Below, in pieces: positions 4,154 through 41,800 of a stretch of DNA of 64,000 nt. Source of the DNA: Schmidtea polychroa (lineage: Eukaryota). The stretch covers positions 2,170,001 through 2,234,000 of the forward strand of contig CM097888.1 of assembly GCA_044892525.1 (NCBI GenBank). The letters run 5' to 3'. The notes beneath the pieces were generated by a model, which ran no database searches, was not told the origin of the DNA, and saw nothing but the letters and a program-made list of their open reading frames with translations. How positions within the stretch are numbered: the stretch's first letter is position 1; every line of letters starts with the position of its first letter. Made by a program: the position numbers and the translations under genes.

Positions 4154-4362
4154 CTCATCGTCAAAATTTTGTTTTTGCAAATTATCATTCAGTTGTGACT
4201 TTATTAAACTTTGATTTTAGTGATAATTATTTCAGTCCTTTTAATAAATCATCTTGTGTATTGCGTGCTTAACATCCGAAACTATGTTTATTTATAATAT
4301 TGATTTTATTTTATAATTGAATGAATAGTATGCTGCAAGAATATAATCGTTGAATTTATCTA

Positions 4363-6460: not shown

Positions 6461-6685
6461 TTATTCAAGGGAATGTTTTACACTCGTTTGCACTCAATAA
6501 ACGCGCTTATAATATAAAACAAAAAATCAATACGTGTATATTATATAAACATACAAACTTAACTGCGTGTTGATTTTTATCGTTGCAATGAATAAACGCA
6601 TTTAATATAGAAAGTGAGAAAGTGGTAGGAAAATAAACTGACACACGCAAACACAACACACACAGTAAAAAATGCATGCAAATTT

Positions 6686-6687
<2 letters not shown>

Positions 6688-6733
<46 letters not shown>
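6688..6733. repeat. (TA)n microsatellite
   Basis: Direct reading. Confidence 0.95.
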
Positions 6734-6736
<3 letters not shown>

Positions 6737-7719
6737 GTTTATATTTATATATTCGTTGCAATGAATAAACGCACTACAATAAATAATTTACAGACATTTT
6801 TAGAATTTTTTAGAAAAAAATGAATGAAAATATTTTAACGAAAATTCCGAAAACTCAACTTTGGGTTCTATAGATAATGAAAACATTATTTCGTAAGATT
6901 TATCTTAAATTTTTAATAAATTTAACAGTTTTTAGTATTTCACATTGGCCTGAAATCTCAACTTTGCCTTCCGATGTTGGGAAGAAAACTAGAAAATCGT
7001 AAATTTTATTAACTTAAATTAAAAAATTAATATTTCTATAGAATTTGAGAACTTGACAAACGGAAAAAAGACGAATATAAAAATTTCAAAAACTATTTTC
7101 AACAAATCTACCGTTTTTCCCTAAATGTTGTAAAAAAATTGATATTTTTGGCGATAAATAAATTGTATTTCTTACTTAATTACTTAATAACAAAAATAAT
7201 AAAACTCACATTATATTGAGATAATTCCAAATAATAATAATAACATCTAAAACTCCTGAAAAATTAATTAAAAATAATTTATAATAAAGAATGTTGATAA
7301 AAAGTATTATTTAAGAGCTTGAATAATGATCTCATATCTATATCAAAAACGGTAGTTGTAGTTGTCCATCATTTCTAAAAGAATATATTAGTAAGCATCT
7401 TTTAGGAATAGCATTACGATTAAAGTTAGTTAAAGCTTCACCAGAAGCTACAAGTGTTTCATTCGGTGAAAAAGGCAAAGATAAAAAGGTATTAATTATC
7501 AGATAATTTAATTTTCTGTTTGAAATTACTTGAAATTTTTTTTTTACTTGAACTTAACAATAATTTTACTTGATGTTTAGTTCATACCCTTTATTCAATA
7601 TTCGGAAAGTTTTAAAGATTTAAATTTTTCTGTAAGGCAATTCAAATATATTTAAAATAATATCAAATTCTTTAAATCATTAAATATGTTTAGGAATAAA
7701 TATCAAACCATAATAGGTT

Positions 7720-14863: not shown

Positions 14864-17800
14864 ATGATGAATAAAATGTTGAATTTGTTATTATTTATTT
14901 ATTTATTTGTTTGTGGCAATTCTGGTGAGCTGGTAATAATTATTTATGCATTAAAATGAGCATTTAGTGAAGCTATTCCTTCCCAATACAAATTTTGCCA
15001 ATAGCAACAATTGGAAGGAAGCTCAAGTGCCATGCTCAGGTAATCATCTGGTATTCCCTAAATGGATTCCCAGAGTCTTCTTCAGTCCTATGTTAACTGG
15101 GCTTCAAGTAATGGATATTGTGAGTACCATGTATGCATGTGTGTGGAGGGTTAAGCTATGATTTGTATAGGATTTCCCTATCAATGGTGAGATTATCCTT
15201 GGTGATTCTCTGACTATCTCAGCATTTCATAATCAGCTGGATGAGTGCGATTCAACTGGTTATATTAGATTAATTATTGTGAAAGCTTTATAGCCATTTG
15301 TTCAGTGTCACATTTCACTAAGGTCACACCTGATCATTGGTATAATCCTTTCAATTGGTGTCAAGCAGATGAGATCAATTGGCAATGCTTACACAAACCC
15401 CAGGTTGAAGCTTCACTGGTTCCGTCAGCTCTAGATCTTGTTGTCTTCCCTAGGAACAGCACATTTTATATTGGAATCAATAATTCAGAGCCTAGAATAT
15501 TAGCACAATCCATATTTTTTNNNNNNNNNNNNNNNNNNNNNNNNNNNNNNNNNNNNNNNNNNNNNNNNNNNNNNNNNNNNNNNNNNNNNNNNNNNNNNNN
15601 NNNNNNNNNNNNNNNNNNNNNNNNNNNNNNNNNNNNNNNNNNNNNNNNNNNNNNNNNNNNNNNNNNNNNNNNNNNNNNNNNNNNNNNNNNNNNNNNNNNN
15701 NNNNNNNNNNNNNNNNNNNNNNNNNNNNNNNNNNNNNNNNNNNNNNNNNNNNNNNNNNNNNNNNNNNNNNNNNNNNNNNNNNNNNNNNNNNNNNNNNNNN
15801 NNNNNNNNNNNNNNNNNNNNNNNNNNNNNNNNNNNNNNNNNNNNNNNNNNNNNNNNNNNNNNNNNNNNNNNNNNNNNNNNNNNNNNNNNNNNNNNNNNNN
15901 NNNNNNNNNNNNNNNNNNNNNNNNNNNNNNNNNNNNNNNNNNNNNNNNNNNNNNNNNNNNNNNNNNATAAGACGCTTTTTTTTCATCACTTTTGGGGATG
16001 ATAATCGTGGTGCGTCTTATACATGGGTATAACAGGAAATATTTTTTCCTACTCAGAAAATTTTCTGAAAACCCGGTATGGGCAAGGGAAATAAAGCATA
16101 AATTAATACAAAATATTTCTTTATTAGTTACAGAATGTTTTTTTCATTACAGAGATCATTATTTTCATCTTCACTTTTTATCAAATTCTCAATCTCAATG
16201 GACTCGTCCACTTCTTCAAACATTAATTCATTTTCCATATCATCATCCTCATTCCCTACATCAGATATATCGTCCTGCCAAATAACATCGTCTTCTGATC
16301 CATCCATAGCATTACTCAAACAACATTTCTTGAATCCTTTGATAATAATTGCCTCAATAACTGCATCCCATGATAATTGAATCCATTTGCAAATAGTTTC
16401 TAAATCAACCTTTCGTCTGTTTCCAGAAGCAGTAAATGATGGAGCTCCAGAAAAAAACCACTCATTCCATCTCTTTCGCATCTCTTGTTTAAATGGCCTA
16501 TTGCAAACTACATCCATAACTTGGAGTTGCCCGGTCATCCCTCCAGGAATAATCACAAGATCTGTTTTGTTTTTTGCCAAAATTTCCTTTACGCATGGCA
16601 TACGGTGGCATCTAAATGCGTCTAATACCAGTAACCTCCTTGAATTTCGAAATTCATCTTTTCTATCATTACACCAAATAGTCTTAATCCAATCCTTAGT
16701 CAACTCCTCATTCATCCATCCATTTTCTTGTGCTTTAACAATCATACCAGCTGGCCAATGAATGTTCTTTGGTAAAGATTTTCTTTTAAAAATTACATAA
16801 GGCGGCATCTTCTTGCCGTCACCATAAGCTCCCAACATAACTGTAAACCGATTCTTTTCGTTGCCTGTAGTTTTAATAGGTACGGACTTGACTCCTTTGA
16901 AATCCAATGTCTGAAATGAAGGTATATCAAAACTTAGTGGAGTCTGATCCCCATTTGCTATGCAACTAATTGGATATTCATGCCTTTTCCTTAAATTTAT
17001 TATATATTTCTGATAGTCGAGCAGCTTATTTTCTACATCATCCGGCAGTCGCTGTGCAATCGAAGTCCTTCTTCTTATAGAAATATCATTCCTTTTCATG
17101 AAGAGCTGGCACCAGCGCGCCGAGGCTTTAAATATTGAACCAGGATACATCTCCTTGACTAACTCTAAAGCCTTCAATCTAACTTCTACAGTGGATATTG
17201 AGGAACCTGAAAATCGCCTTTCATGAACATATTCAACTAATTTTTTCTCCACGTCAGGAAAAAATAATTTCCTCCCTCTGCCAGGGGCCTTTGTAGAGGA
17301 TCTGCACTCTTTTAAAGTATTTTTATTATTTCTCCAATGCCTTACATTAGCTTCACTGAGTCCATATTCTCTAGATGCTCCTCTATTTCCGATACGTTCG
17401 GCTGCTTCAATTACCATCAATTTGAAACCTGTCGTATAACTGCAGCGTTTAGAAGACATTATAGGGAAATAAAAATTTAAATTTAAGTAACTGAAATTTT
17501 AATTTTAAACAAAAAATAAATTTAATGTAATATAAATTTAATGTAATATAAATTTAATGTAATATAAATTTAATGTAATATAAATTTAATGTAATAATTA
17601 TACATGCGTCTTATATTTGGGTTACTTATATTTTCTTGAATTCAGTCAATTTTTAATGATGCGTCTTATATTGGATGCGTCTTATATNNNNNNNNNNNNN
17701 NNNNNNNNNNNNNNNNNNNNNNNNNNNNNNNNNNNNNNNNNNNNNNNNNNNNNNNNNNNNNNNNNNNNNNNNNNNNNNNNNNNNNNNNNNNNNNNNNNNN

Positions 17801-20800: not shown

Positions 20801-23800
20801 ATAATTATTATAGCAGGCTGTTTTGAATTCTCGTGTTGGGGGCGCCAGATATCTGAACCACACAGGGCGCAATAATGTCTTGTTACGGCCCTGTGAAATA
20901 TTTTCCATATAAAAGGCTGATAAAATGTTTCTAACATAAAAGCTGCTTTCTAAAATACAAAGTTATTTTTAATTTCTGTTTTGCAGGTCACTTATTAACT
21001 GTTGGGTTACTAAATAAGTCGCATAAGACCAAAATAGGAGACTGGTTAAACAAGTATCTAAATTCTCAATTCCAGGTAAATAAATAATTGTTTATTTGTG
21101 TCTGATGAGGAGCTTAGGAGAAAATAATATTTGATGTGCTCGCGGTGGAAATAACGAATTTTCAGTTGACAATTTCTCCATTGATAACTGATGAGGAACA
21201 ATTTGATAAAATTATTATGGAAATTATAGAAAATATTCAATCAAGTAAAATATTATTTTTTATTCATTTTGCAATATAAATAAATGCTAAAAGTTCGTTT
21301 TCTGTTCATTTAGTTACTCATTACCAGTGGCGTAACTAGTGGACGCGGGACCCTGCGTTGCGGGGGCCCAAAATTATTACTAAAAAAATATTTACAATCA
21401 TTTTCTGAAACTTTTTTCCCGCAGTTATATTTGCCTACAAACATAAAACTATCATTGAATAGCGGCTGCTGTGAATAACTGTGTATTAAACTTTAACCGA
21501 AAAATTTAAATGGAAATATTTTACATTGCCCAAATTTTGAAGTTCTGCCACTGCTCATTACCCCCTAATTCTCTTTTCTGCATTATTGCAGGTTTTCTTA
21601 TTTTGTCAGTAAATATATTTTCATTTACATAAGGGCTCCAAACTTAATTTAATCCATTTTAATTTTATTAAATCCTTATTAAGTTTTATGGAAATACAAG
21701 AATGGAAATACATTTAGAAAAATCACTAATAATGAAAGAGGATTAATTATATGAAAACATAACGCATGAAAATATGCCAAGCTAATTCCCAATGAGTTAG
21801 AATTAAATGTAAAAACAGTAACATAAATAATTAGGTTATTTAAGAAGGCGGGCTGCGAGACAACGAACAGCGCCACTAATAACGGAAAAGGCAAAAAGTT
21901 ATATAAGGTCTGAAATCGATAGAGATATTTCCATTACTCTACAGCAGTGATTCTCAGCCTTTTTTTGTTGCGGCACACTTAACGATTTCAAAATTTTGGG
22001 GCACACAAAAGTTTTTATAATACACGTTGGCGTGTGCATCAGTGAATATGACTCACCATTTATGAGAAAATGAAGTTATTTACTTCATTTATTCAATTCT
22101 ATAAATGGTTTTCAAGTAAGTTTTTTAAATTTAAGTAACTTCTAAGGCTTGAATTTTGATTTTATATAATTATGAGATCATTTCTCGGCACAATAGTTAA
22201 GAATCACTGCTACAGGCTTTAAAAACAAAAGTTTTAAATGAATTCAACATTGATTGTTCTTTACCAACAAAAGATTGGTGTTATTGGTATAAGGGCGAAT
22301 GATAAATAAATATTATAACCTTTTGTGTAATAAAATGTCAAAATTTATATGGATTAAATTAAGTAGTGTGTATATATACCCAACCCAAACAGCCCTCCCA
22401 ACAAAAACATACCTCCATTACGCTTAAACCATTAGAAAAACAACATAAAACCTATGCTTTTATAGTATTTTAACCCCATATTTTAAACAACAACCACCCT
22501 TAATCTTTAAAGCCTCAAACTCAAAAGCTTCAAACTAAAAAGAGAATAGAAAAGAAAATGGCATTATGAAAAAGTTAGAGGGCTATTTGGGATAGGGCTA
22601 TATACACACTACTTTTGATCGCAATCAAACTCCGGAGTTGATCTTTATTGATTTTAAATTATATAAATTAAAAAATAAATGAAAAATAGTAAAACTGCTC
22701 TGAGGGGACAGTGGTATTTTTTTTTTCACTGTCCCCTCAACAGTTTTTTTTGATCCGGATCATTTTTTTATTTATCAACCTCTTTCGTTTATCAAATCTC
22801 TTCCAATATACAAGCTGGCCAGACTCATACATCAGAATCAATTCGATAATAGCAGCACACCTTATTATTCGCTTCTCGCTCGAATACGATTTCATCGGCG
22901 TTTTAAGTGTGCTGCTCGAAAGTACAAATGAATTCGAAAGTGAATTCGAAAGAGGTCCGAAAACAACTGAGAAATAAATGTGCACATTAAAGAATCGATC
23001 CGGGGGTGTTCGAAAGACAGGTGGCGATAATTACCGGTTCGCCACCATCACCCGTTTCAATAATTTTTTTTTCATATTTATGTTTAAAAAATAAAATAAA
23101 ATAAAATAAATAAAATAAAATAAAAATAAATAAAATATACAACTACTTTATAAATCTAAGATACCCACACCATTTTCAATATTATTTTAAAATTTTTAAT
23201 ATTATTTTATGTTGAAAAAAAACTAACCACAGTTAGGATTTGAACCGCTAGCATTTTGAACCACTGTGCCAGTCTAGCCCACTGCGCTATCTAGGTTTGG
23301 ATTTTTCTCATTTTTTAGACTATAAATAATCGATTCAAGTTCTTTAACTCTTTCCTGTAATTATTTCATTTTCTTCAATCTTATATCAGCAACATCTACA
23401 GCCTTCATATAAAAATGTCGATACTTTTCATTATCTACCATCAACTCTTTGATGTATTCTAATGGTTCTTCTTCTCTTCTTTTCATTCTCTTATGTTTAA
23501 CTTCATTCAATTCATTTCTCATTCTTTCTTTTAACTCATCCATTTTTATAAATATTTTTTTTATTGGATATATTAATTTTTGGTAGCTTAAGTTAAAACG
23601 TTTTTGATCTTAAATTTCCAAGAGTTGCCGTTGACCAATCTCCTTAAAAATTTGTACAAGTACTAAATCGAGTATGCTGATCAATATTTCGTTTAAAAAA
23701 ATATTTGAAAAATAATTGACCGAAATGGGATTTGAACCCATTGGTATTGGCAATGCAGTCGAGTGCTATTACCACTAAGCTATACTCAATATAAAATAAG

Positions 23801-26800
23801 TTGTTAATGTGTGACTATTTATTGATGAAATTAATAATTAATTATTCATTTTCTCGACAACTACCACTCAGATCCATCTGAAAATTTAAATATATACTAA
23901 AATCAGTAAGCTGAATCAGATTCCGTTGAAAAAAAATATCGAAAAAAATTGACCAAAATCGAAAATTGAACCCGGTACTCCCGGTGATAAAATTGAAGCC
24001 TATTCCCACTCCGCTATAATGGCTTACATAATATATTTAATTAATCCTATTGTGTGTGTGTAAATTTTATTATATAAAAATGAATAATATAAATCTTAAA
24101 ATTCAAGAAAAAAATAAATTAAATCTTGATTATAATAAAGAATTTACTCATGAAATCAAGAAAAATGATGTACTTAAAATATCCCCTACGTCAGGATCTA
24201 TTGCAAACTTAAATCGTAGGGGTGATATAGTTTTTCAATCTCTTCAAACATCAAACCCAATAGATATTTGTAATGCTAAATTATATTATAAAATCGAATT
24301 AGAAATTGAAGCAAACAAAGATATAACCCTAGAAAATAATTTCTTTCCAAATTTATTCTCCAACATGAGATTAAAACTAGGATCATCAGAAATTGAAACT
24401 GTTTTGCATCCGGGAGTATATTCTACAATGTTAAATTTTATTTTGACTGGTTGTGATTATAAAAACGAATATGGTGAATTAACAGGTTGGATTCCTGATG
24501 TTAATAAAGGAGATTTAGATAAAGATGGTTTAGATATAAATTATGGTTATTATAAAAGAGCTGAACTTTATAAATCTAAAAAATTTGAAGGTTATTTTGA
24601 ATTAAAACACTTGTTTGGATTCCTTCAAAACTATAATCGTATACTTCATAATGTTTTTATAGAATTAGTTTGTAATAGAGTAGAAGGTGATAAAAGATTG
24701 TTCTATGGAGCTGCAGATACAAAAGCTAAATTAAAATTATCAACACTTGAATTGCATATACCTGAATGGACATTAAACCCACATTCTGAAATCAAACTCC
24801 TTGAAAGATTAAATTCCAACAAGTCTATAAATGTAAATTATTTAAATAGAATCTGTAGTGAATTTAGTATGACAGAGGGTTCAACATATTCTATAAAGGT
24901 AGCAAATTTAGCATACCGACCAAGGTATATCTTGATTGGATTCAAAGAAGTAGATTCATCTTTCCAAAAAAATAACAATCTATTTATTCAAAAGATTGGA
25001 GATGATAATTTAAAAACAATCCAAATTCAATTAAATAGTTCTTATTATCCAATAAATAGAATGGAATTTAATATTGAAAATAATGAAAACATATTCCCAT
25101 ATCTAAATTATATTGAAACATGTTATGATTTCAAAGTTGAACCACAATTAAGTTTAGAAGATTTCAAAAATTTATATTCTATATTTTGTATAAATGTATC
25201 AGATCAAGATGATAGATTAGCCATAAATAATGTTGATGTTACACTTCATGTAACAAAGGATTCTAATTTCAAAGCTAAAGTATATACATTAATATTAGAA
25301 GAAAAGAAAATAGAAATGAAATTATATGGTGGAAAGATTTCAATTATTGAAAATGTTAGGGGAGATTCTTGATATAATCCCTGATATTTTAACATTTTAA
25401 AATGTCTCTAAATAAATATTGGAGATGTGAAAGTTGTAATTGTCAAGTTACAAGACATCATAAAGCAAGTCATTTAAAAACTAAAAAACATACAGGAGGT
25501 GATCTAATTCCACGAGCTGGAGGTGATTTGCAATCTTCAAAAACAACATCTTCAATATTAAAACCTTTTACTACAGAAAAATATCCAGGTGAAAAACATT
25601 TATTTAAACACAATTATACTGGGCCAGGAACAAGATTAGATATTAGATTAGATTAGATGAAAATAATAATCCCAAACAAGGAGAAGAACCAACAAATAGA
25701 ATTGATCAAGCAGCTTTAAAACATGATATTGCTTACAATTCAGAAGATCTTAAAGATAGACATGTTGCAGATGTTAATTTAATACATGATTTAAATAATA
25801 TACAAAATCCATCAACCCAAGAAAAGATTCAAAGAGCTCTAGTTAAATTAGCAATGAAAGGTAAGATTTTCATAGGCTTAGGACACAGTCCGATCGCCAT
25901 GGGTGCAAGACTTCCTAAGAAAGCAAAAGATGTTGCTAATAAAAAGATTATTGAACAAGCAGATGCTGAAAGATCCCTCGAGAATATATCCAAGACTAGT
26001 TTATTAACCCCAACAGAATCACAAATAAAATATGCCAACGAATTACACCATGAATTTAGAAAAAATAAAAAATATTTAAAAGTTCAAGTACATGAAAAAG
26101 ATCAAACATGGTCTGCTGATTTAGTCTTTATGCCAACCAAATCATCAGACCCTGAAAAATATAAAATAATTTTAACAGTAATAGATTTATATACAAGATT
26201 TGCCTTTGCAAGGTGTTTAGAAAATAAAACAGGATATTCCATTACAGAAGCATTTGAAAATATATTTGAAGAACATCAAAGAATTCCAAAATATTTATGG
26301 TGTGATAAAGGAACAGAATTTTATAACAAAGTTTTTACAAAGTTTTTAAATGAAAATGATATTAAATTATATTCAACAGAAAACGAAGGAAAAGCAGTCG
26401 TAGTTGAAAGATTAAATAGAACATTAAAAAATAAAATGTGGAAATATTTTACTGCTATTGGAAAACAAAAATGGAACAATGAATTGTTACAAAAGATTGT
26501 AAATGAATATAATAATGATGTACATAGTTCTATAAAATTAACACCTTTAAATGCTTCCTTGAATCCTTTGGAACTCATAAATCCTGTTGAAAATGATGTT
26601 ATTGAAAAACCAAAGTTTAAAATTGGTGACCGAGTAAGAATATTTAAATATAAAAATAAATTTGAAAAAGGATTCACAGCAAAATGGACAAATGAAATTT
26701 TTATTATAAATAAAATACATTATACAACCCCAATAACATATAGCATCATTGATTTAAATAATGAAAAAATATTAGGTAGATTTTATAATAATGAGTTACA

Positions 26801-29800
26801 GAAAACAGATTTTTAAGTCGACAAGCCCTAAAACAAACTTTTCCATATTTCAGCTTCTTCTCTATCCAAATAAATATAATTATATTTTTCTTTCCAATGA
26901 TTATCAACAAACATATCAAACATATTCTTATCAGGTTCAACATTTGAAAATAAATCATTATAAATCATATTCTTATCACGGCGATCTAATTTAAAAAATA
27001 TAAAACAATTAGAATTATTTCTTATAGAGTTTTTATCTAAAGCATAATATGTTTGAGATATATAAATAACATTACAATTATTATGTCTTCCTCTTGTAAA
27101 GTAACTCTTTTGAATCTCTTGATTTTTCATGTTAACAACATCATTAAATATAACTAAATTCTTTTTATCTTTAGGAAGTAAATCACAATGTAAAACATCT
27201 TCAGGTTTATTAGAGAATAAAACTTGAATCGCCTCTGCCTGCCCCTCATCTTCACAGATGTAATCATTTTTATTACTAATATCTGATTCTAAAATCTTTT
27301 CCTTATACCAATCAACCATATCACAAGGTTGAAAAACTTCTTCAGGACATCTATGTTGATTTTTAAAAATATCAATTATAGCTTTTTTAGTTAATTTATT
27401 TTCAAATCCACATTTCAAAAGTTGTAATTCTGGTTGATTTATGGTTGTAGAGTAAAAGATTAAATTATTATAATCTAAAAAACCATCTTCAAGCAACATT
27501 TTCAAAACAAGTACATTCTTTCCACATCCAGAAGAACCAACAATTAATAATCTAAAATTATCAGGAAATACTTTATTATTAAATTTAGATTTATGTCTAT
27601 TTAAAATTGGTTTCCAAATATCCATTTTATTTATTTAAAAATGACAACTGAAGAATCTTTGCAAGAATTAATAAATTCAAATAAAAATAAATCAGTAGTA
27701 ATTGATGGTAAAAAATATTTTATTGGAAAACATGTAAAAGAACAAGTTAGAGCGAAGATTAAAGAAGGTGGCATTCTTCCATTAGCTGCTTTAATACCTG
27801 CAATCATTGCCGGACTATCAGGTGCTGCTGGAATAGCTGGAGGAATTGCAACTACAGTTCAAAAAGCTAAAGAATCTCAAAAGACAGACCTAGAAAAAGA
27901 AAAACTACAAACTGAAATCGATTCAATGAAAAAGAAGGGAGTGTCCGAAGGTCAAAAGTCCGTTGGAAAAGGTCTCTATCTTAATCCATATCAGAAAGTG
28001 TCCGAAGGTCAAAAGTCTCAGGGGAGTTGCTCCGTTGGAAAGGGTCTCTATCTTGATCCTTATAAAGGCCGCGGTTTAAATGATTTTTTAAAAAATCAAA
28101 TTTCATCATCTGAATCTTTATCTTCAAAAGATAAAGATGATTTAAAAAAAATGTGTAAATCTTTAAAGAATGGATGCCTTTGTAAAACTAAAAATGGTAA
28201 AGGATTATATTTAAAACCTTGGAAGGAACCATGATACCATTTTTGATACCATTAAAATGGTATATGAAGAAAGATTAGCACTTTTAAAAAAATTACAATC
28301 AGAACAAGATAAATATAATAAAAAAGATACAACTCAACATGCTGAATCTATAATATTAAATGAGATAATAACACAACAACAGGGGCCAACAATTAAAGCT
28401 ATAAAAGAGTTGGAAGATTTCAATGAGCAAGCAAAATTTAAAGAGTTAGAAGATAAAAAACAAAAAATAAAAGAACTAGAGTGGCAGGATAAAGAAAAAG
28501 AATCCAGTGAAAACCATCCTGAAAGAAATCAAAGAAAACGCAGAAGAATTTCTAATGTGGAAGAGAAAGAAATGTTTTTAAAAACAAAACCTCTTAAAGT
28601 TGATCCTAAAATTAGAGATGATTTACCTCCTTCAATTAGACCCACATTTAATACTAATACTGAAGGATATCAAATAATAACAATTAATAAACAAAACTTT
28701 ACTTTATATTCAAATTCATTGCTCATTGAAATCTTCCAACTCTTTTATAGCTTTAATTGTTGGCCCCTGTTGTTGTGTTATTATCTCATTTAATATTATA
28801 GATTCAGCATGTTGAGTTGTATCTTTTTTATTATATTTATCTTGTTCTGATTGTAATTTTTTTAAAAGTGCTAATCTTTCTTCATATACCATTTTAATGG
28901 TATCAAAAATGGTATCATGGTTCCTTCCAAGGTTTTAAATATAATCCTTTACCATTTTTAGTTTTACAAAGGCATCCATTCTTTAAAGATTTACACATTT
29001 TTTTTAAATCATCTTTATCTTTTGAAGATAAAGATTCAGATGATGAAATTTGATTTTTTAAAAAATCATTTAAACCGCGGCCTTTATAAGGATCAAGATA
29101 GAGACCCTTTCCAACGGAGCAACTCCCCTGAGACTTTTGACCTTCGGACACTTTCTGATATGGATTAAGATAGAGACCTTTTCCAACGGACTTTTGACCT
29201 TCGGACACTCCCTTCTTTTTCATTGAATCGATTTCAGTTTGTAGTTTTTCTTTTTCTAGGTCTGTCTTTTGAGATTCTTTAGCTTTTTGAACTGTAGTTG
29301 CAATTCCTCCAGCTATTCCAGCAGCACCTGATAGTCCGGCAATGATTGCAGGTATTAAAGCAGCTAATGGAAGAATGCCACCTTCTTTAATCTTCGCTCT
29401 AACTTGTTCTTTTACATGTTTTCCAATAAAATATTTTTTACCATCAATTACTACTGATTTATTTTTATTTGAATTTATTAATTCTTGCAAAGATTCTTCA
29501 GTTGTCATTTTTAAATAAATAAAATGGATATTTGGAAACCAATTTTAAATAGACATAAATCTAAATTTAATAATAAAGTATTTCCTGATAATTTTAGATT
29601 ATTAATTGTTGGTTCTTCTGGATGTGGAAAGAATGTACTTGTTTTGAAAATGTTGCTTGAAGATGGTTTTTTAGATTATAATAATTTAATCTTTTACTCT
29701 ACAACCATAAATCAACCAGAATTACAACTTTTGAAATGTGGATTTGAAAATAAATTAACTAAAAAAGCTATAATTGATATTTTTAAAAATCAACATAGAT

Positions 29801-32800
29801 GTCCTGAAGAAGTTTTTCAACCTTGTGATATGGTTGATTGGTATAAGGAAAAGATTTTAGAATCAGATATTAGTAATAAAAATGATTACATCTGTGAAGA
29901 TGAGGGGCAGGCAGAGGCGATTCAAGTTTTATTCTCTAATAAACCTGAAGATGTTTTACATTGTGATTTACTTCCTAAAGATAAAAAGAATTTAGTTATA
30001 TTTAATGATGTTGTTAACATGAAAAATCAAGAGATTCAAAAGAGTTACTTTACAAGAGGAAGACATAATAATTGTAATGTTATTTATATATCTCAAACAT
30101 ATTATGCTTTAGATAAAAACTCTATAAGAAATAATTCTAATTGTTTTATATTTTTTAAATTAGATCGCCGTGATAAGAATATGATTTATAATGATTTATT
30201 TTCAAATGTTGAACCTGATAAGAATATGTTTGATATGTTTGTTGATAATCATTGGAAAGAAAAATATAATTATATTTATTTGGATAGAGAAGAAGCTGAA
30301 ATATGGAAAAGTTTGTTTTAGGGCTTGTCGACTTAAAAATCTGTTTTCTGTAACTCATTATTATAAAATCTACCTAATATTTTTTCATTATTTAAATCAA
30401 TGATGCTATATGTTATTGGGGTTGTATAATGTATTTTATTTATAATAAAAATTTCATTTGTCCATTTTGCTGTGAATCCTTTTTCAAATTTATTTTTATA
30501 TTTAAATATTCTTACTCGGTCACCAATTTTAAACTTTGGTTTTTCAATAACATCATTTTCAACAGGATTTATGAGTTCCAAAGGATTCAAGGAAGCATTT
30601 AAAGGTGTTAATTTTATAGAACTATGTACATCATTATTATATTCATTTACAATCTTTTGTAACAATTCATTGTTCCATTTTTGTTTTCCAATAGCAGTAA
30701 AATATTTCCACATTTTATTTTTTAATGTTCTATTTAATCTTTCAACTACGACTGCTTTTCCTTCGTTTTCTGTTGAATATAATTTAATATCATTTTCATT
30801 TAAAAACTTTGTAAAAACTTTGTTATAAAATTCTGTTCCTTTATCACACCATAAATATTTTGGAATTCTTTGATGTTCTTCAAATATATTTTCAAATGCT
30901 TCTGTAATGGAATATCCTGTTTTATTTTCTAAACACCTTGCAAAGGCAAATCTTGTATATAAATCTATTACTGTTAAAATTATTTTATATTTTTCAGGGT
31001 CTGATGATTTGGTTGGCATAAAGACTAAATCAGCAGACCATGTTTGATCTTTTTCATGTACTTGAACTTTTAAATATTTTTTATTTTTTCTAAATTCATG
31101 GTGTAATTCGTTGGCATATTTTATTTGTGATTCTGTTGGGGTTAATAAACTAGTCTTGGATATATTCTCGAGGGATCTTTCAGCATCTGCTTGTTCAATA
31201 ATCTTTTTATTAGCAACATCTTTTGCTTTCCTAGGAAGTCTTGCACCCATGGCGATCGGACTGTGTCCTAAGCCTATGAAAATTTTACCTTTCATTGCTA
31301 ATTTAACTAGAGCTCTTTGAATCTTTTCTTGGGTTGATGGATTTTGTATATTATTTAAATCATGTATTAAATTAACATCTGCAACATGTCTATCTTTAAG
31401 ATCTTCTGAATTGTAAGCAATATCATGTTTTAAAGCTGCTTGATCAATTCTATTTGTTGGTTCTTCTCCTTGTTTGGGATTATTATTTTCATCTAATCTA
31501 ATCTAATATCTAATCTTGTTCCTGGCCCAGTATAATTGTGTTTAAATAAATGTCTTTCACCTGGATATTTTTCTGTAGTAAAAGGTTTTAATATTGAAGA
31601 TGTTGTTTTTGAAGATTGCAAATCACCTCCAGCTCGTGGAATTAGATCACCTCCTGTATGTTTTTTAGTTTTTAAATGACTTGCTTTATGATGTCTTGTA
31701 ACTTGACAATTACAACTTTCACATCTCCAATATTTATTTAGAGACATTTTAAAATGTTAAAATATCAGGGATTATATCAAGAATCTCCACTAACATTTTC
31801 AATAATTGAAATCTTTCCACCATATAATTTCATTTCTATTTTCTTTTCTTCTAATATTAATGTATATACTTTAGCTTTGAAATTAGAATCCTTTGTTACA
31901 TGAAGTGTAACATCAACATTATTTATGGCTAATCTATCATCTTGATCTGATACATTTATACAAAATATAGAATATAAATTTTTGAAATCTTCTAAACTTA
32001 ATTGCGGTTCAACTTTGAAATCATAACATGTTTCAATATAATTTAGATATGGGAATATGTTTTCATTATTTTCAATATTAAATTCCATTCTATTTATTGG
32101 ATAATAAGAACTATTTAATTGAATTTGGATTGTTTTTAAATTATCATCTCCAATCTTTTGAATAAATAGATTGTTATTTTTTTGGAAAGATGAATCTGTT
32201 TCTTTGAATCCAATCAAGATATACCTTGGTCGGTATGCTAAATTTGCTACCTTTATGGAATATGTTGAACCCTCTGTCATACTAAATTCACTACAGATTC
32301 TATTTAAATAATTTACATTTATAGACTTGTTGGAATTTAATCTTTCAAGGAGTTTGATTTCAGAATGTGGGTTTAATGTCCATTCAGGTATATGCAATTC
32401 AAGTGTTGATAATTTTAATTTAGCTTTTGTATCTGCAGCTCCATAGAACAATCTTTTATCACCTTCTACTCTATTACAAACTAATTCTATAAAAACATTA
32501 TGAAGTATACGATTATAGTTTTGAAGGAATCCAAACAAGTGTTTTAATTCAAAATAACCTTCAAATTTTTTAGATTTATAAAGTTCAGCTCTTTTATAAT
32601 AACCATAATTTATATCTAAACCATCTTTATCTAAATCTCCTTTATTAACATCAGGAATCCAACCTGTTAATTCACCATATTCGTTTTTATAATCACAACC
32701 AGTCAAAATAAAATTTAACATTGTAGAATATACTCCCGGATGCAAAACAGTTTCAATTTCTGATGATCCTAGTTTTAATCTCATGTTGGAGAATAAATTT

Positions 32801-35800
32801 GGAAAGAAATTATTTTCTAGGGTTATATCTTTGTTTGCTTCAATTTCTAATTCGATTTTATAATATAATTTAGCATTACAAATATCTATTGGGTTTGATG
32901 TTTGAAGAGATTGAAAAACTATATCACCCCTACGATTTAAGTTTGCAATCGATCCTGACGTAGGGGATATTTTGCGCACTGTGAAGTATCTACCAAATCA
33001 GTACTCTCATCAAGAGCGATCGAAAATGCTTCAAAATCTCCAGCCTTTTCAATAAATTGTTTTTCACATTATCTGCTAAATCGGTTATTCTGCTTGCAAC
33101 TGTATTAGAAGACAGACTTATGCTTTCGAATAGTTTCTTTTTATCAGGAATTAAAATTTCCCTGGCCTTCAAAAAACATTCTTTTATGAATGGACCTTCT
33201 GTGAAAGGTCGCGATGATTCAGCTATCATCAGGCTTAGCTCAAAACTTGTTTTTACTGAATTTTCTGCAAATTGGCTTAAATTCGAAAAAAAGTTTCGTT
33301 GCTTATCAAATTCTATTTTAAGCTTGTTAACCTTTTCATCTCGAATTTTTCCAGTATATTTATCATATTTTTCACGATGCATAGTGTCGCAGTGCCGGCG
33401 AAGGTTGAACTCCTTTGGTACTGCGATAATCTGCTGGCATATAAGGCACTGAATTTTATCTCTCGCCTCTGTGAAAAAATATAAATTCTCCCACTTCTCT
33501 TGGAAAACCCTTCTTTCATCAACGAGTTTTCTTTTTCTAGATAACAAAGTCATTTTGTGATGGGTATAAAAAATTTTAAATATGCCAATTATTATTTGTT
33601 GATTGAAATAACATTAAATTAAAATAAACAAAAATTTAAATTATGTAAAATATATGTATTTTTAATATAACTTATATTTTTTTAATTTAAATAATTTAAA
33701 TAATAAAATCAATAATTTTTAAAATAAATAAACTGTTTTCGATAAGATTCATAAGAAAGACGTAATAAAGCCATTATTAAATTGTACTAGACGTCATATG
33801 TATAAATAAAAATAATTAAAAAGATTAGTTTTAATTTATACAGCTAATTATGATTTAAATTGTTAAAGAAGTTTGGTTAAATTACAAATCTATGTTTTTT
33901 CGTTGCGGGCCGCATGCGGCCCGCGGGCCGCGTGTTTGAGACCCCTGATCTAAAAGATTACAAAAAAACTAAATTCATAAACTTGAAATACCTCTTGCTC
34001 GCGTCTGTGTGCGCACACAGCCAAAAACAAAGAAAAGAAAAGTGCACACAGACGCGAGATCAACTAACAGCCCAACACAAAAAATTACATTGCTCGCGTC
34101 TGTGTGCGCACACAAATTCATCACACAATACAACGCGCACACAGACGCGCATTGAGCTAATAATTCACCATACAGATATATTACCATCTACCTCATACCC
34201 AACGTATAAAATGAAGTTCGAGACAATGCCACCCTTGGGTACATCAGTATTGGAGATGGTGTCGAAATATCCATTTAGCACATTGGAACGGCTAAAGGAA
34301 GAGTATAAAGATGAAATAAAATCAGAAAATGACCAAGATAGTGATGATCAACAAAAGTTCAGAGATAATATCAGAGGAATCTCAACAATATTAATGGTCA
34401 ATATGGGTAAAAAGACTTATAAACCTACGATTAAATTAAAAGTTAACAGGCATACGGTACATGCCATTATTGATTCAGGATCAGATTTGACATTGATCGA
34501 AGCAAATTTATTAAACGAAAAAGAATTACAAGCAATAGTGCCGACATTAACTGTGGCATCGGGAGCAAATGGACAACCTATCAATGTTATCGGAACATTA
34601 GATTGTGAATTAAGGTTGTGTGATCAAAAATTTAGACACGATATAAAGGTCACTAGACAATGTATGGCAGAATGTATCGTGGGAATGGATATATTGAAAA
34701 AGTTAAAAGATATTGTATTCGATTGTGCAACAGGTGAATTAGTGAAAATGACGGGTAGAAAACGGAAAACCTACAGTGTGAATGTAGTGTTTTTGGATAG
34801 AACGGTGACAATACCACCGAGGACCGAAACAGTTTGTTTCGTAGCAACACATAAGAGGTGGAAGGAGATGTTATTTTCGAACCGAGTGAGCAGTTCGTAA
34901 CTAGGTATAAAACACCTATGGTGCAAAACTTGGCAACAGTACGGGGAGGAAGGATCCCGATTAGATTAACGAATCTAGCGAGTAAATCATTGAGATTATA
35001 CCCAGAAACTAGAGTGGGTAAAGTAATACAACTATCTAACATGCAGAAAGAGTCTGAATCGATATTATCAGTAGAAGAGGATGAACGAGATCCTGATATC
35101 GAATATTACGACGCACCGAGCTGCGATAGTAAAGCCTTATCTAGAAAAGAGAATATCAGAGTTAATCAATTGTTACGTAAATATGACCAAGTTTTCGCAA
35201 AGCATGAATATGACTTAGGGCAAGTTAATATCTTAGAGCATGAAATTAAATTAACAGAAAATAAACCGATAAAAATACACCCGTACAGAATACCTCAAAG
35301 TATACAAGGGTCAGTAGACAAACAAATCAAATTAATGCAAAAATATAATATAATCAGACCCAGTAAATCTCCTTATTCCTCACCTTTGGTGGTTGTAGCT
35401 AAAAGAGACGGCTCAGTAAGATTATGCAATGACTATAGGAAATTAAATGAACAAACAGTTAGTGATAATCACCCGCTACCTTTGCTAGATTACATTTATG
35501 ATAAAATGAAAAATTCAAAGTTGTTTACTGTGATGGATGCACAGAAAGGTTTTTATCAAATAAAGATGAGCGAAGACTCAATTCCTATGACAGGATTTTC
35601 TACAAGTAATGATCACTTTGAATACTTAGTAATGCCGTTTGGATTAAAAGGAGCCCCTCCAACTTTTCACAGGGCAATGAATATCATGTTGATGGATGCA
35701 CATCACGCAATGGTATATATAGACGATATTATCATCTTCTCGGAAGATTTAGATAAACATTTGGAACATCTTGAGGACATTTTCAAAAGATTGATTATGG

Positions 35801-38800
35801 CAAATCTGAAAGTAAAGCCAAGTAAATGCAAATGGGCAGAATCGGAAGTGATTTACGTAGGGCATGTAATATCACACGATTGCGTAAGACCAGATCCGGC
35901 TAACACGGATAAAGTAAAGAATTTCCCACAACCAGTGAATGTAAAACAAATCAAAGGATTTTTAGGATTGACGGGATATTACCGGAAATTTATACGAAAT
36001 TTTTCAGCAATTGCTTTTCCTTTAACTACCTTAGAAAAGAAAGGTATAAAATTTTTATGGGGAGAAGACCAGCAACAGGCATTCGATAAGTTAAAAGATG
36101 CATTATGCAAACCACCAATTCTACGATTTCCAGATTTTAAAAGACAATTCATTGTGATAACCGATGCATGCACAAGAGGTATAGGTGCAGTTTTGGGACA
36201 GAAAGATGAAATTGGCGATGAATACGCAGTAGCATATGCAAGTCGTGGATTGAAGCCACACGAAAAAAGTTATGCTGTAATAGAATTGGAAGCATTAGCA
36301 TTAGTGTTTGCAGTGGAAAAATTTAGTCATTACCTTTGGGGCAGAAAGGTAATTTTCTATACGGATCATAGACCATTGCAATGGCTACTAAAACATAGAG
36401 ACGAAGCATCAAAATTAGTAAGATGGACATTGAGATTACAGCCATATAATATCGAAAATGTATATCGTAAAGGTAAAGCTAATGGTAATGCAGACGCATT
36501 ATCACGAATGGAGCAAGAGCCTGAGTTAGAAGATATAAAGGAAGGAAGATTAGAAGGGACAATCTTCATGCTAACAAGAGAGGCTAACACTTTGAGTGAT
36601 TTAGTAGAGGCTCAGAAAAATGATGACGAGATCAATATGATCAGACAAGCTATAGAAGCAAAGGCCATACCAAATGAATTTCAGAAATATTGGGAGAAAC
36701 ATAAAGATAAATTCATATTGGAAGGTCTAATCAAATACGTTGAATCAAGGAATAATGTAATATTAGTGCCAAAGAAATACAGAGAATCACTATTATTACA
36801 ATACAACGATGGAGCACTGGGAGGACATCTCTCAGCTAGACACACACTATCGAGATTAAAAATGAAATACTTCTGGCCATATATGAAAGATGATGTTAAA
36901 AAGTGGTGCCAATCATGTAAGATATGTATAACCAGAAGGAACACAGGTAGAAAACCACATGTTCCATTGAAACCAATGCCAGTACCGTCCTCGCCAATGG
37001 AGATGACTGCTATGGACGTACTAGGGCCGTTTAAAGAATCGAAGATGGGAAATAAATTTATCATAGTATTTTGCGACTACTTAACGAAGTGGCCCGAAGC
37101 ATTCCCAATTCCGAATCATAAGGCAGACACAATTGCCAGAATCTTTGTAGAACAAATTGTATTTAGATATGGTGTTCCGACAAAATTGCTTACCGACAGA
37201 GGAAAGGATTTCATGAGCAATTTGTTAAAAAGTATAAATGATTATTTTGGTATTTTAAAGTTAAATACCTCACCATACCACCCACAGACGGATGGATTGA
37301 TAGAAAGGTTCAATGGAACCTTGGCAAACATGTTATCATCATACGTAAACTCAGGTCAGGCGGACTGGGATGTGCACATACCATCATGTTTGTTTGCGTA
37401 TAGAAATGCTGTTCATTCAGTAACAGGAGAAACACCTTTCTATTTGATGTATTTAAGGCATAACAAGATGCCAGTGGATCTTATATTTTATCCGAAAGCT
37501 TCACAGAATTGTGATGAGGGAAATTACTTATTCGAGATGAGAGAGAGAATGCAAGAAGCCTGGGAGAAAGCAGGTTTGAACATTCGTTATAACCAAGAAA
37601 CAATGAAGGAATATCATGATCGCAAGGCAAAGGATCATGGATTTTTGGTTGGAGATTATGTCATGTTAGAGGGACATTACAACAAAAAAGGTTTATCTCC
37701 AAAATTAATGAGAAATTACAAAGGGCCTTATCAAATTTTGAAAGTCACAGAAACCAATTTAGTCTTGCAGTTAGTGGCAAAGAGAAAAGCAGAACCGATC
37801 ATGGTTCATGCAAACAGATGTAAAAAGTTAGCCCCGCCAGAAAAGGAGAAACCAAAATCCGATATTGATGAATTCAAAATAGATAAGAAATCAAAAAAGA
37901 AAACGTTAGAATCATATAAAAGTATCCTAAAGGGACAACCAGAACGATACCCTTTTCGATCTCGGCAAATCCCAAAAACTGTTACATTTCTAGCAGTGAT
38001 TAGTTGTGTTATGATCATTGGACAAGCATTCGAGGTATTTACACCTAAAGCCAGTCAACATCCAGATATCGAATATCAACGAACAGATAGAGCATTCAGA
38101 TTTCATTTAACGAATATACAATGGCATAGATATGATCTATATTTGGTAGCTGCTGAAAGAGGGATATCATTTCACTTGAATACATGGGATCGAGTAAAAA
38201 TAATAGAGGGACTTATGCCGAATACAAGTTATCTATTAGAAATCAAGACATTTTTTGCAGACCCAAATGTTTTTGCAGACGAGGGAGATTGTGTAGATAA
38301 AGCAGCATGGAATTTGAAGACTGCAAAATTTACCAAAAAAGTAGAGATTTCATATCTCGGGCAGATAGTAAGACTTACTCATCCACGGTGGAAAAGAAAT
38401 GACACATCTTCCACTCACGATTGGAGGACGAATAATAAAATTGCACTAATCGTCATATTAGAAAATGACCAGCGAGTCGAGAGATTAGTGCTCAATCATG
38501 CGTATCTAAGTAGAAGATGGAAAATCAAACCAGATACCGTGACAAAGGCGAATATTTCGTATTTGGAATTTACGGAGAGAACCGGTTGGTATACAATATA
38601 CCAAGAAATAGTAAATCTAATACCTCACACAAAGGGAGAACTAACTAGCAAAGAAGGAAAGGCTAGATTAGTGAGTATTCCTGGTTGTAAAGGAATAAAT
38701 GCTTTGGATCGGTTTAGTATTAGAAAGGTAGCGAGTGTAAAACAGCCCCGCATAACTAAATTAATTAATAATTGTAGTTGTCAAAATACGTTAAAGGGGA

Positions 38801-41800
38801 CAACGAGAGATAAAACGCCAACTTAGCTATTGTTAATTATGATAGGGGGAGTAATTTGCATGATTTTAATTTTGATATTAGCCACCCTATGGATGTTTAG
38901 ATTAAACATGCGGGATATTCGTTATTGGGAAAATATTTACGAAACCGAGGTATAGGGGAAAAGTCTCACCATATACTAGGAAGTGTAAATATATATAGTC
39001 ATTTATTTTATATGTTATTTATATTAGTATTTAGACTAATGTGGGCTCAAATGAGCATCTGTAAAATCAGACATCAGCGTATGTCGACTTTGGTTACCCT
39101 GCGAGGGTCTATCACGAAAGTGATAAACGCTGTTAATTATTTTATTTTTAGAAAAATGAATTATAACAGAGAACCAAAGCCACCAGTCAAAGCAAATCGA
39201 CGACACCCATTGGCAACGTACAATTCCCAGACTCGAGTTGAAACTGAAGTGTATAGCACCTATAAAGAAGAGTATGTATATCGGTTCATCGGAACCACGG
39301 TCGCAGCAAAAATGAATCACCTCACCTCAAACTATTGGTATTATCCCAGGAGAGTGGATATTCCAAACGATTTCAAATTCCCAGGAGGGCCTCATAGGCA
39401 AATGATGATAACGGTTATAAATAACCAAGGTAGATTAAAATTGGCAGAACTATGTAGGGAGTATGGTTCATGTCCGAAATTGGAAAATATTTGGATCCAT
39501 GCGATCAATAGGCCATTTACTGTGCTTATGGCGGATTAGAGTTACCTGTTGAATTAGAAAAACAGTGTACTCTGGAGATATACCACGCTGATGGACGAGA
39601 ACGGAAGATTATGATCCAGGCAGCGGCAGTGGATACCATAATTGTAGTAGAAATCTTAAACTTCAGGAAGCCATACGCTATAGTTAGGAAAAACGAGCCA
39701 ACTTGGATTTATAATGTAAATGAAGCTGATATACAGCAGTGTAAATCATTTGTGAGGAAGAAGTTAACCAAAGCCGAGGAGGACGAGGCTACAATTTTCA
39801 TATCGGCAGGTTTTGCCAAATCCCGAATCGAATTGAAGGAGACAATTATCCAAATCGTAATTATGGATATGAGAGGAAATAATTTACTGAGTGCGGTAGT
39901 GACTCCCAGAGACCCTGTAAAACACTACCAAACGCACCAATACAAGTTAAAGGAACCAGATATTAAAGGAAACCTCGACGAAGATGATTGTTATCATCTG
40001 ATAAGAAAGATCTGTGATAAGAAAATACTTGTAGGTATTTTGCTTAAAGATCTGACCTCGGTAGCCAATCTACCAGTGCAGCGGATATTGGGTATCCGTG
40101 ACCTTTCTGCAAATAAACTATTGGAAACCAGAGGAGTCCCAAAGATTCATGGTCATTACAGATTGGGATTCCTGACAAAGACTTTCCTACGTACGGTTCC
40201 CGGAGAGCCAAGGAATTTAGTGGTCACCAATGAGGCACTGGCGATACGTGCGGTTTATTTACATATCAGAAACGAATGGTTAGACCATATCACGATACCC
40301 CAGGAGGAATTCACTTCTGCAACTACAGCAGCGATAGTTGAACAGGAAATGACGCAAAAGAGGAGATTACCCGAGCAACCATCTACATCAGAGCAACCCC
40401 AGCCTAAGAGAAAATCACCTGTGGATCTACCACCGCCTCCAGCTATATCTATTGGAGAAGAAGATGAATATGAAACATGTGCTAGTGAAATGGAGACAGC
40501 AAAATCACCTAAACAATCATCAGGAGCTGCCTATCAGCCAAAAGATAAACCGGATAATGCGGTCAGAAAAGAAAATCCAAAAGGAGGCAAGGTGAAAAAG
40601 ATGTTAAAGAAAATGTTACTCATAAAAAGAGACAAGTCGAAGCTAAAGTTGAAGAAAGTTGTTAAACCGTCGGAAGGAAGAGACACCCAGCAGTATGGAA
40701 GATAAGAATAATAAACCTCAAAAGATATTCAGCGAACCAGATGATGACATTATGGAAGTTGCCTTTCAACCTCCGGTTAAGGAGATGCAGGAAGCAATAA
40801 AGGTTAAATCTGAACCTGTGGTAAGGCAGAAAATGTTAAAGATTGCCAAGGAGAATATCATCAAGAAACCAGTTTCGGTTGATGTGGACGGTTTCGAACC
40901 AATGTGGTACAAACGTCCGGATAGTAAATGGAAACCCAGAGCTAAGGAGTATGACTGCCAACCAGTCACGAGAATGGCAGTCAATAATAATCAAAAATAT
41001 GATGTTTATGACGTAGACGGGATCCCTTACGTGGTGTCTACAGTCATATTAACGAGTGCTCTGGATGGTAAGCCTTTGGCAGTGAGTTTTGAGCCAGAAG
41101 TCTTACAGAAGAGGAAAAACAAGTTGTTGCAGCAATACGTCGTTGCCAATAGCTACAGCACAAAGGAGCTGCACCTTTACAAAGTTCCCGACCAAGATCC
41201 CGACGATCTGGATATCTAATCCGAGAGCGTTGCCACCCAACATGTGTCGTCGAATTCAAATGTGTATAAAATGACTTAACTATTATTTGATTTGTGCTAT
41301 CCAGTGTTTTGACATTTATTATTTGTGATTGGAAACATTCATTTTGTGTTTTGTCTTATTTGATTAATTTTTATGTTTTATTGTAATACTGTTTACCAAA
41401 AGCCTTTCTTTAGTCTTGTTTTTGTCTTGTTTTCGAGACGAAAATTTTTTAGGGGGTAAGACTTGTTAGGGATAGGCCTGGGGCCTTGACTGTAAAATAA
41501 ATAAAGAATTACTATATTTAGAAATGGTATAAATAAAATAATAAAGAATTACCGAAAATAAAATATAGAGTTAAATAATTACTATAATTTGATATATTTG
41601 ATATTACTATTACTATATATAGTAATTATAAAATTGCTATTAATATAATAAATAATTAAAATATGATATAAATACTGGTTCAAAACGAGAACCAGGGGAG
41701 AAGAATTTGGACGATAAAATTGACAAGAAAGTGGGACGGAAAAACATTGAGACAATAATTTAGAAGATTATTTGATTATCATTGTAAAAAAAGAAAACGT

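Follow-up and report, generated by a model that had tools for sequence, protein, structure and literature searches.

The 64,000-nt stretch of the Schmidtea polychroa genome analyzed here (the window) carries one copy of a Polinton/Maverick family that is present in about 3,000 copies in this genome. Polintons are integrated relatives of adenoviruses and, to our knowledge, have been described almost wholly through their proteins. The features of the locus are listed in Table 1. The AGTAGT at 22362, which an initial annotation of this DNA had put forward as a candidate terminus, is the true left end of the copy, and the terminal cassette that it opens varies in sequence from subfamily to subfamily. 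The neighboring ORF at 24080, likewise proposed as the capsid gene, does encode a double-jelly-roll capsid protein. Only the left end is present in the window, without the polymerase half and the right end known from complete copies. Both ends, with AGTAGT-starting terminal inverted repeats and a 6-bp target-site duplication as is typical of Polintons, were found in seven of the eight sister copies fetched, and these seven are 13.7-15.6 kb in length. Protein-primed PolB (PF03175) was detected in a sister copy and makes up the Polinton gene set together with the integrase, capsid and ATPase genes of the window. The small optional ORF encodes 89 aa in sister copies and has no credible Pfam match.

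Table 1. Features at the left end of the Polinton copy (positions within the window).
Feature	Position	Strand	Details
Left terminal cassette	22362-22613	+	starts with AGTAGT, finishes with ACTACT; imperfect inverted repeat in itself
Unit 0	22682-23055	-	A box 23044-23034; B box 23001-22992 (GGATCGA form)
T runs of unit 0		-	internal T4 22963-22960; terminators T4 22694-22691 and T5 22686-22682
3' hairpin of unit 0	22691-22747	-	A-rich loop; one two-sided compensatory pair; followed by T runs
G-U-rich hairpin within unit 0	22789-22849	-	25 bp, pre-miRNA size (predicted fold)
Unit 1	23215-23297	-	A box 23289-23279; B box 23246-23238; T8 terminator 23222-23215
Small optional ORF between units 1 and 2	23361-23543	-	60 aa; shortened in the window's copy
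Unit 2	23708-23789	-	A box 23782-23772; B box 23738-23730 in intact T-arm; T5 terminator
Unit 3	23942-24023	-	A box 24016-24006; B box 23973-23965; T7 terminator
Double-jelly-roll major capsid protein gene	24080-25372	+	PF21738
Fold-back duplication	24176-32973		4255-bp arms, 24176-28430 and 28719-32973
rve integrase ORF	25854-26816	+	PF00665
A32-like packaging ATPase	26828-27625	-	PF04665

The initial annotation had reported three minus-strand units next to the capsid gene, each with an A box, a B box at tRNA spacing and an oligo-T terminator. All three were recovered at those places, the B boxes following the A boxes by 43, 44 and 43 nt in units 3, 2 and 1. A fourth A/B pair and the folded region behind it, here called unit 0, were absent from that annotation; the A box of this unit is one position off the consensus. 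A generic type-2 pattern found these four pairs between 22362 and 24080 and none in the rest of the window, while none of 2000 dinucleotide-shuffled versions of that region contained an A/B pair and whole-window shuffles gave a mean of 0.017. The bodies of the four units have diverged, and their boxes share one geometry at tRNA spacing. Unit 1 holds a second A/B-like copy starting at 23271, and its terminator was T5 or longer in 117 of 117 copies extracted with a motif that itself demanded at least T4; the terminator of unit 2 is longer in most copies than in the window. Unit 3, which stands head-to-head with the capsid gene, is a diverged 234-bp duplicate of unit 2, as had been proposed (alignment score 118, as compared with 14.6 ± 11.3 in 100 shuffles). 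The accompanying claim that the boxes persist in this pair while the middle differs agrees in direction and falls short of significance (16/20 versus 19/33, p = 0.14).

The 5' half of unit 2 is of tRNA-Cys ancestry, in line with the likeness noted before. It matches the host's own tRNA-Cys at 29 of 36 positions, with values of 20 for Lys and 16 for Arg among the three isotypes compared. Units 0-3 were likely captured from host tRNA genes, which themselves form tandem arrays with a period close to that of the units (281 bp for Cys); tRNA-Cys alone has 993 matches in the genome. That the units are not normal tRNAs was borne out: ARAGORN called no genes, the acceptor and anticodon pairs of unit 2 are broken, and the Rfam tRNA model gave this unit 26.7 bits in the window (cut-off 29) and 32.4 bits in a sister copy, leaving units 1 and 3 unmatched. 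We therefore rejected functional tRNAs, as a cloverleaf with acceptor and anticodon stems emerged from neither ARAGORN nor Rfam.

In the genome, a unit-1 pattern that does not capture all known variants had 884 exact matches, a unit-0 29-mer had 2550 and a unit-2 30-mer had 2966. Element DNA surrounded all sites inspected, that is 20 of 20 each for units 0, 1 and 2, plus six of six outliers for unit 2. The single site without an element end or a capsid gene is a fragment of the element of about 1 kb, containing unit 3 and three tandem copies of unit 2. SINE insertion into the Polinton, for which the initial annotation had expected copies outside Polintons flanked by target-site duplications of their own, is highly improbable, since no such copy was seen at any of the 66 sites checked. 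With its A/B head, body and A-rich tracts, unit 0 is laid out like a SINE; the dispersed free-standing copies that define a tRNA-derived SINE were not found at these sites, and we rejected this class.

Across the Polinton family, the units lie at both element ends, head-to-head with the first gene (the capsid gene on the left, the polymerase gene on the right). They are spaced about 235-245 bp apart, and their number shifts through tandem duplication. In some copies the terminal inverted repeat extends over unit 1, and units 0 and 1 sit together within both repeats in some. Boxes, spacing, terminators and the fixed place in the element ends are established. Units 2 and 3 are optional, and the units as a whole are dispensable in cis: two of seven complete elements with target-site duplications lack any unit, as do the upstream regions of nine of 38 capsid-anchored loci. 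The existence of intact Polintons without units, named in the initial annotation as evidence against its reading, was thereby borne out in part. Presence is scattered across a quick capsid tree, in which two of 37 branches are well supported.

Among 130 copies of unit 1, substitutions common to at least three copies affected one of 20 box columns and 25 of 57 other columns, flanking and internal (p = 0.002), and the one variable box column is an A/G position permitted by the consensus. As the shared variants spare the boxes, the promoter is under selection while the RNA body, free to vary between lineages, is drifting. Units 2 and 3 are nearly without variation to test. This near invariance would suit neutral passengers, i.e., pieces of a host tRNA array that a successful lineage picked up a single time and has kept ever since, and so would the similar period of the host arrays and the scattered presence on the weakly supported tree. 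Such a history explains neither the box conservation in unit 1 nor the shared box geometry of four divergent bodies nor the RNA-specific fold of unit 0 described below, and we consider it improbable.

A conserved duplex is a requirement for any VA-like RNA. Predicted folding was no stronger than that of shuffles for unit 1 (z 0.7) and unit 3 (z 0.2), with z -2.4 for unit 2, and the body of unit 1 varies, so that the VA-like reading of units 1-3 given in the initial annotation is unsupported; what stands of it is that the units belong to the element, derive from tRNA and form type-2 Pol III cassettes whose boxes are under selection. Judged by predicted folding, the VA-RNA-like candidate is unit 0, not units 1-3.

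Unit 0 is likely to encode a Pol III RNA with a predicted length of about 360 nt. VA RNA is about 160 nt long; unit 0 would be about twice that length, and its predicted folds have no 5'-3' terminal pairing of the kind that would form a terminal stem. For the region of about 360 nt, the folding z-score is -10.5 in the sense orientation, as compared with -5.9 for the opposite strand, and a 150-nt scan of one full element placed windows below z -4 only in the 3' parts of its two unit-0 copies. The head folds like shuffles (z 0.1). The G-U-rich hairpin, about 63 nt, folds only as RNA of the Pol III sense (minus) strand, with -24.2 kcal/mol (z -6.5) as compared with -2.1 for the antisense RNA (z 0.9) and -4.7 for DNA (z -1.6). 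In 116 copies, pairing was kept by 12 of 19 shared variants and by 15 of 61 single-copy variants (p = 0.004). Two-sided covariation is thin, amounting to one pair in a 31-row alignment and two pairs in the 116 copies, and repair of a DNA palindrome could be its source. Among changes from Watson-Crick pairs, G-U was not favored over A-C (shared, two versus four), and depletion of T runs was not significant (P = 0.17). The internal T4 could stop most transcripts at about 90 nt; it need not stop the host's Pol III, because host tRNA-Lys carries an internal T4. Rfam assigned unit 0 to no named family, the best matches being generic hairpins far under the cut-off, and no complementarity of at least 12 nt to the element's own genes was found.

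Viral type-2 Pol III RNAs have precedents in VA RNA (PMC7589676), the TMERs of murine gammaherpesvirus 68 (PMC8223928) and bocavirus BocaSR (PMC11194592). As in the Polinton units, the genes for adenovirus VA RNA I and II have their A and B boxes within the transcribed region and end in a U-run terminator; they are virus-borne and tandem, and an origin from a tRNA gene has been proposed for them (PMC7589676). Unit 0 resembles them in being long and, by prediction, highly paired. The Polinton units differ in their terminal location and their duplication in inverted repeats, and units 1-3 lack a conserved duplex. Membership in the VA RNA family was rejected, since a terminal stem, central domain and apical stem were not recovered and the Rfam VA family gave no match at E up to 1 or 10. 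The TMERs are clustered type-2 units of tRNA origin, in which a tRNA-like head is followed by hairpins (PMC8223928). Unit 0 shares this layout, and by predicted shape it alone has a candidate hairpin of pre-miRNA type downstream; units 1-3 stop right after the T-arm. TMER heads are tRNA-folded and have a triplicated A box (PMC8223928), unlike the head of unit 0, and with shuffle-like folding in the corresponding part of units 0, 1 and 3, TMER membership was rejected as well. Elements of the same virus lineage, namely polinton-like viruses, virophages and MELD viruses, carry tRNA-derived genes that were called as tRNAs by Rfam or ARAGORN and are seen as translation aids (PMC12220804, PMC8502044). 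In contrast, ARAGORN does not recognize the units described here, their acceptor and anticodon stems are disrupted, and one of them would give a long RNA that is not a tRNA. Our literature search found no such Pol III RNA described for Polintons.

BocaSR, a single intragenic Pol III RNA of 140 nt, is encoded next to the end of a small DNA virus genome and exerts its effect at that terminus, on the origin of replication (PMC11194592). By analogy, the RNA of unit 0, which adjoins the terminal cassette and lies within the inverted repeat in some copies, might be an aid to replication at a terminal origin and not a silencing decoy. We find this hard to reconcile with the single 9-nt A-rich match between unit 0 and the cassette, which offers no pairing comparable to that of BocaSR, with the constancy of unit 0 while the cassettes differ among subfamilies, and with the complete elements lacking unit 0; the probability of such a role appears low.

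Documented polymerase-free TFIIIC sites near heterochromatin edges (PMC6950938) suggest a further explanation, in which all four cassettes would be TFIIIC landing sites that insulate the ends and the divergent promoters from heterochromatin, any RNA being a by-product. Retention of the boxes while the unit 1 body drifts, the head-to-head arrangement with the first gene at both ends, and the regular spacing with copy-number change by tandem duplication are all consistent with it. Extra-TFIIIC sites and tRNA-gene insulators resemble units 1-3 in their clustered A/B boxes and possible factor-binding value, yet they are host-chromosomal and polymerase-free (PMC6950938), whereas the Polinton units also conserve terminators and a structured RNA. 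A purely cis-acting role leaves the unit-1 terminators of T5 or longer and a hairpin that folds only as sense RNA unexplained, and we regard it as unlikely.

According to our analysis, the element end carries four outward-facing type-2 cassettes, likely derived from host tRNA genes and likely read by host Pol III, with the RNA of unit 0 as the likely effector; we assign this reading a probability of roughly 0.55. As all four units keep their Pol III signals, the production of small RNAs by the element itself, after the manner of adenoviruses, is likely. TFIIIC would bind the A and B boxes and TFIIIB would be positioned upstream of the units, and Pol III would then release three tRNA relics of 75-80 nt from units 1-3 and transcribe unit 0 through its one internal T4 to the T4 or T5 past the last hairpin. 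Units 1-3, their RNA sequence being unconstrained, would act mainly through TFIIIC/Pol III binding itself, which may keep not only the end accessible but also the divergent promoters of the capsid and polymerase genes. From thousands of templates, the unit-0 RNA might enter the host small-RNA pathway via its pre-miRNA-sized hairpin. Its action there as a Dicer substrate, or as a decoy that weakens silencing of the element, is a tentative suggestion that we hold to be somewhat less probable than its negation. More doubtful still is the idea that an abundant RNA of about 360 nt feeds or jams Dicer/Argonaute through the G-U-rich hairpin and has aided the spread to about 3,000 copies. With the same reserve, this RNA might be viewed as a Polinton's equivalent of VA RNA in counter-defence, assembled independently out of tRNA promoters of the host.

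If true, selected, element-borne Pol III RNA genes would add a non-coding layer to Polintons. How these virus-like transposons evade silencing by the host could then be tested directly, as could the question whether the integrated relatives of adenoviruses have an equivalent of the VA-RNA strategy. With near-identical templates in the thousands, about the size of the host tRNA arrays, the RNA should be easily detected, and the family may be a real load on the host Pol III.

Relatives were sought more widely. In 38 distant metagenome capsid loci, which total 100,547 bases and in most cases lack element ends, neither units nor a unit-0 homologue were found by motif, by ARAGORN with its threshold lowered, by a unit-0 profile or by Rfam, the last applied to 20 of the 38. 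One of these loci (L112) gave a mir-754 match; a mir-754 search in the planarian genome gave none, and the control was likewise unmatched in that search. Viral contigs contained no relatives, and the best-scored places for a diverged capsid query in this genome included no second, distant family.

Contigs from four sequencing runs, presumed to be RNA and possibly containing DNA, were also inspected; as contigs only were used, their depth cannot rank the parts of the element. With this possible DNA content, summed contig depth over unit 0 was about 13,000 in run X2, 3,300-7,200 in X1 and 44-137 in X5, and most capsid bins had 0-194 (first bin 535), 230-1,120 and 0-29, respectively. The far higher depth over unit 0 than over most capsid bins is a lead only. 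Depth was moderate over unit 1 (1,407 in X2) and near zero over units 2 and 3, again in runs that may contain DNA. One contig joint skips 23574-24063, and the missing cover on units 2 and 3 may therefore mean a subfamily without them. Unit 0 was also covered by contigs under two other species labels, one in X4 and several in X5, the latter with up to 16 differing letters per piece.

The three tRNA-like cassettes proposed by the initial annotation (units 1 to 3) are present at the left end of the Polinton, with B boxes 43-44 nt behind the A boxes and oligo-T tracts after them. A slightly wider type-2 pattern recovered a fourth pair, which is followed by a folded region and is here called unit 0. 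These four are the only pairs in the whole window, and none arose in 2000 dinucleotide shuffles of 22362-24080. None of the units is a working tRNA according to ARAGORN, and unit 2 scores 26.7 bits against the Rfam tRNA model (cut-off 29), in agreement with the earlier view that units 1 to 3 are not normal tRNAs. The 5' half of unit 2, described as Cys-like, is identical to the host tRNA-Cys(GCA) at 29 of its first 36 positions, compared with 20 for tRNA-Lys and 16 for tRNA-Arg, the only other isotypes compared. The host's own tRNA genes form long tandem arrays with periods of 281 bp for Cys (993 matches), 424 bp for Lys and 278 bp for Arg. Units 2 and 3 are indeed a diverged 234-bp duplication. 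The claim that the boxes persisted while the middle changed holds in direction (identities of 16/20 in the boxes, 19/33 between them and 93/151 in the downstream spacer), but the difference is not significant.

The element's gene set comprises PolB, integrase, capsid and ATPase, and seven of the eight sister copies fetched at length have both ends and a 6-bp target-site duplication, these seven measuring 13.7-15.6 kb; the copy in the window is folded back on itself and lacks the polymerase half. In this AT-rich assembly of 781 Mb, exact patterns matched unit 0 2550 times, unit 2 2966 times and unit 1 884 times, the last an undercount because the pattern leaves out common variants; these counts are close to the roughly 3,200 capsid candidates. 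Context was checked for 20 of the best 40 unit-2 matches, 20 of the first 100 unit-1 matches, 20 of the first 100 unit-0 matches picked for absence of a unit-1 match, and the six unit-2 sites in the first 19 Mb of contig C1 that had no unit-0 match. All 66 sites lie within element DNA; the units are therefore not SINE insertions, a source that we reject and that keeps only a very slight probability.

The units are an optional part of the element. From 47 capsid loci, seven were dropped for stops or short matches and two had been fetched twice, leaving 38 distinct loci enriched for diverged subfamilies. All four units occur in eight of these, units 0 and 1 alone in 21, and none in nine; units 0 and 1 were never found apart. 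Among seven complete elements, units 0 and 1 occupy both terminal repeats in two and the left one only in three, and no unit is found in two. Unit 3 points away from the capsid gene, and unit 1 at the right end has the corresponding orientation relative to the polymerase gene. The unit slot is a variable accessory region, since one subfamily has an HTH-like ORF plus another ORF there in place of the units.

Unit 1 is variable enough for a test of selection. Across 130 copies, substitutions common to at least three copies affect one of 20 box columns, a consensus-permitted A/G, against 25 of 57 columns in the sequence flanking and separating the boxes (p=0.002, a guide only because the copies are not independent). 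We regard neutral carriage of the units as improbable. Compared with shuffles, units 1 and 3 fold no better and unit 2 modestly better. In units 1 to 3 the promoter and terminator count and the RNA body seems not to, which argues against the VA analogy drawn for them.

The VA-like role proposed earlier moves instead to unit 0, while its premise of element-borne cassettes stands. The roughly 360 nt behind the fourth pair fold on the same strand at -134 kcal/mol (z -10.5; opposite strand -5.9) and end with a hairpin, after which come T4 and T5 tracts. An internal T4 might end the RNA early, although the host tRNA-Lys also has one. Within unit 0, a 25-bp hairpin of pre-miRNA size relies on G-U pairs and has z scores of -6.5 as sense RNA, 0.9 as antisense RNA and -1.6 as DNA; stable as sense RNA alone, it is therefore unlike a DNA palindrome. 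In 116 copies, with the window copy as the sole basis of the predicted structure, pairing was preserved by 12 of 19 shared variants versus 15 of 61 single-copy variants (p=0.004), and several lineage deletions cleanly remove or shorten one stem. Against a conserved fold, there are only one or two two-sided changes, and a test of G-U versus A-C changes on Watson-Crick pairs was negative. Unit 0 matched no named Rfam family.

No run recorded as RNA contained the unit region. In four runs guessed to be RNA, contigs from three species labels span unit 0 and those from one label span unit 1, at depths unsuited to ranking parts of the element. The 38 distant metagenome loci, most without element ends, contained no units. 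Near the polymerase end of a distant metagenome Polinton, a long hairpin matches Rfam mir-754 at 48.6 bits (E 9e-7), short of that family's 84-bit cut-off, with no A/B pair detected nearby.

We infer transcription and every subsequent step as follows. All four cassettes would most likely be transcribed outward by Pol III of the host together with its TFIIIC. The functional product would be the unit-0 RNA, which most plausibly would serve the small-RNA machinery as a substrate or decoy, and units 1 to 3 would be promoter relics that recruit the machinery and keep the element ends open. A purely cis role of the cassettes as insulators is a tentative alternative (TFIIIC sites were compared using parts of PMC6950938), and a replication aid like the bocavirus BocaSR (compared using parts of PMC11194592) is unlikely. 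The mode would resemble that of viral type-2 Pol III RNAs, as far as the consulted parts of PMC7589676 and PMC8223928 describe it; by membership tests the units are not VA RNA, TMER or tRNA. In the portions consulted, PMC12220804 reports 558 hits to tRNAs among polinton-like viruses and virophages and interprets them as translation aids, and PMC8502044 annotates tRNA genes predicted in MELD viruses and does not mention VA or noncoding RNA. The literature searched, seen in part and excluding subscription papers, repeat databases and Supplementary Tables S11-S12 (ncRNA hits) of PMC12220804, did not describe any Polinton gene for a Pol III or VA-like RNA.

The outermost segment of each end is itself an inverted repeat; its sequence is unrelated between several subfamilies, with an unchanged layout, and it may form a terminal panhandle in single-stranded DNA.

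Coordinates of the cassettes and of further features in the window (plain numbers), in fetched loci (L) and on contigs (C) of its genome (G000)
Feature	Location	Strand	Observation
Units 1-3, A boxes	24016, 23782, 23289	-	
Unit 0, A/B boxes	23044/23001	-	
Internal T4 of unit 0	22963		
Left end	22362		AGTAGT, common to many copies
Outermost end segment, itself an inverted repeat	22362-22613; L081-L110		outermost ~210-300 bp of each end, AGTAGT...ACTACT
Fold-back	24176-32973		4255-bp arms, reported 100% complementary; 288-bp spacer
Spin-doc zinc-finger ORF	32990-33553		beside end of second arm
HTH-like and second ORF	L157:1507-2406 (L157 at G000:C2 near 16.167 Mb); L081		
Element fragment L221	G000:C1:12400-13400		unit 3 plus unit 2 in three tandem copies (243-bp period); another, unrelated A/B pair just upstream
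Integrase ORF of complete copies	L151:3280-4689		N-terminal phospholipase-A2-like domain, PF08398
mir-754-like hairpin	L112:2810-2889	-	
Host tRNA arrays	G000:C1:269.25 Mb; C4:76.66 Mb; C140		
Tc5/pogo-type DDE transposase	16128-17459		
Retroelement-like gag/pol ORF pair	33914-41219		more ORFs lie downstream; judged by eye
14-bp and 22-bp tandem arrays	47000-48000; 59500-62000
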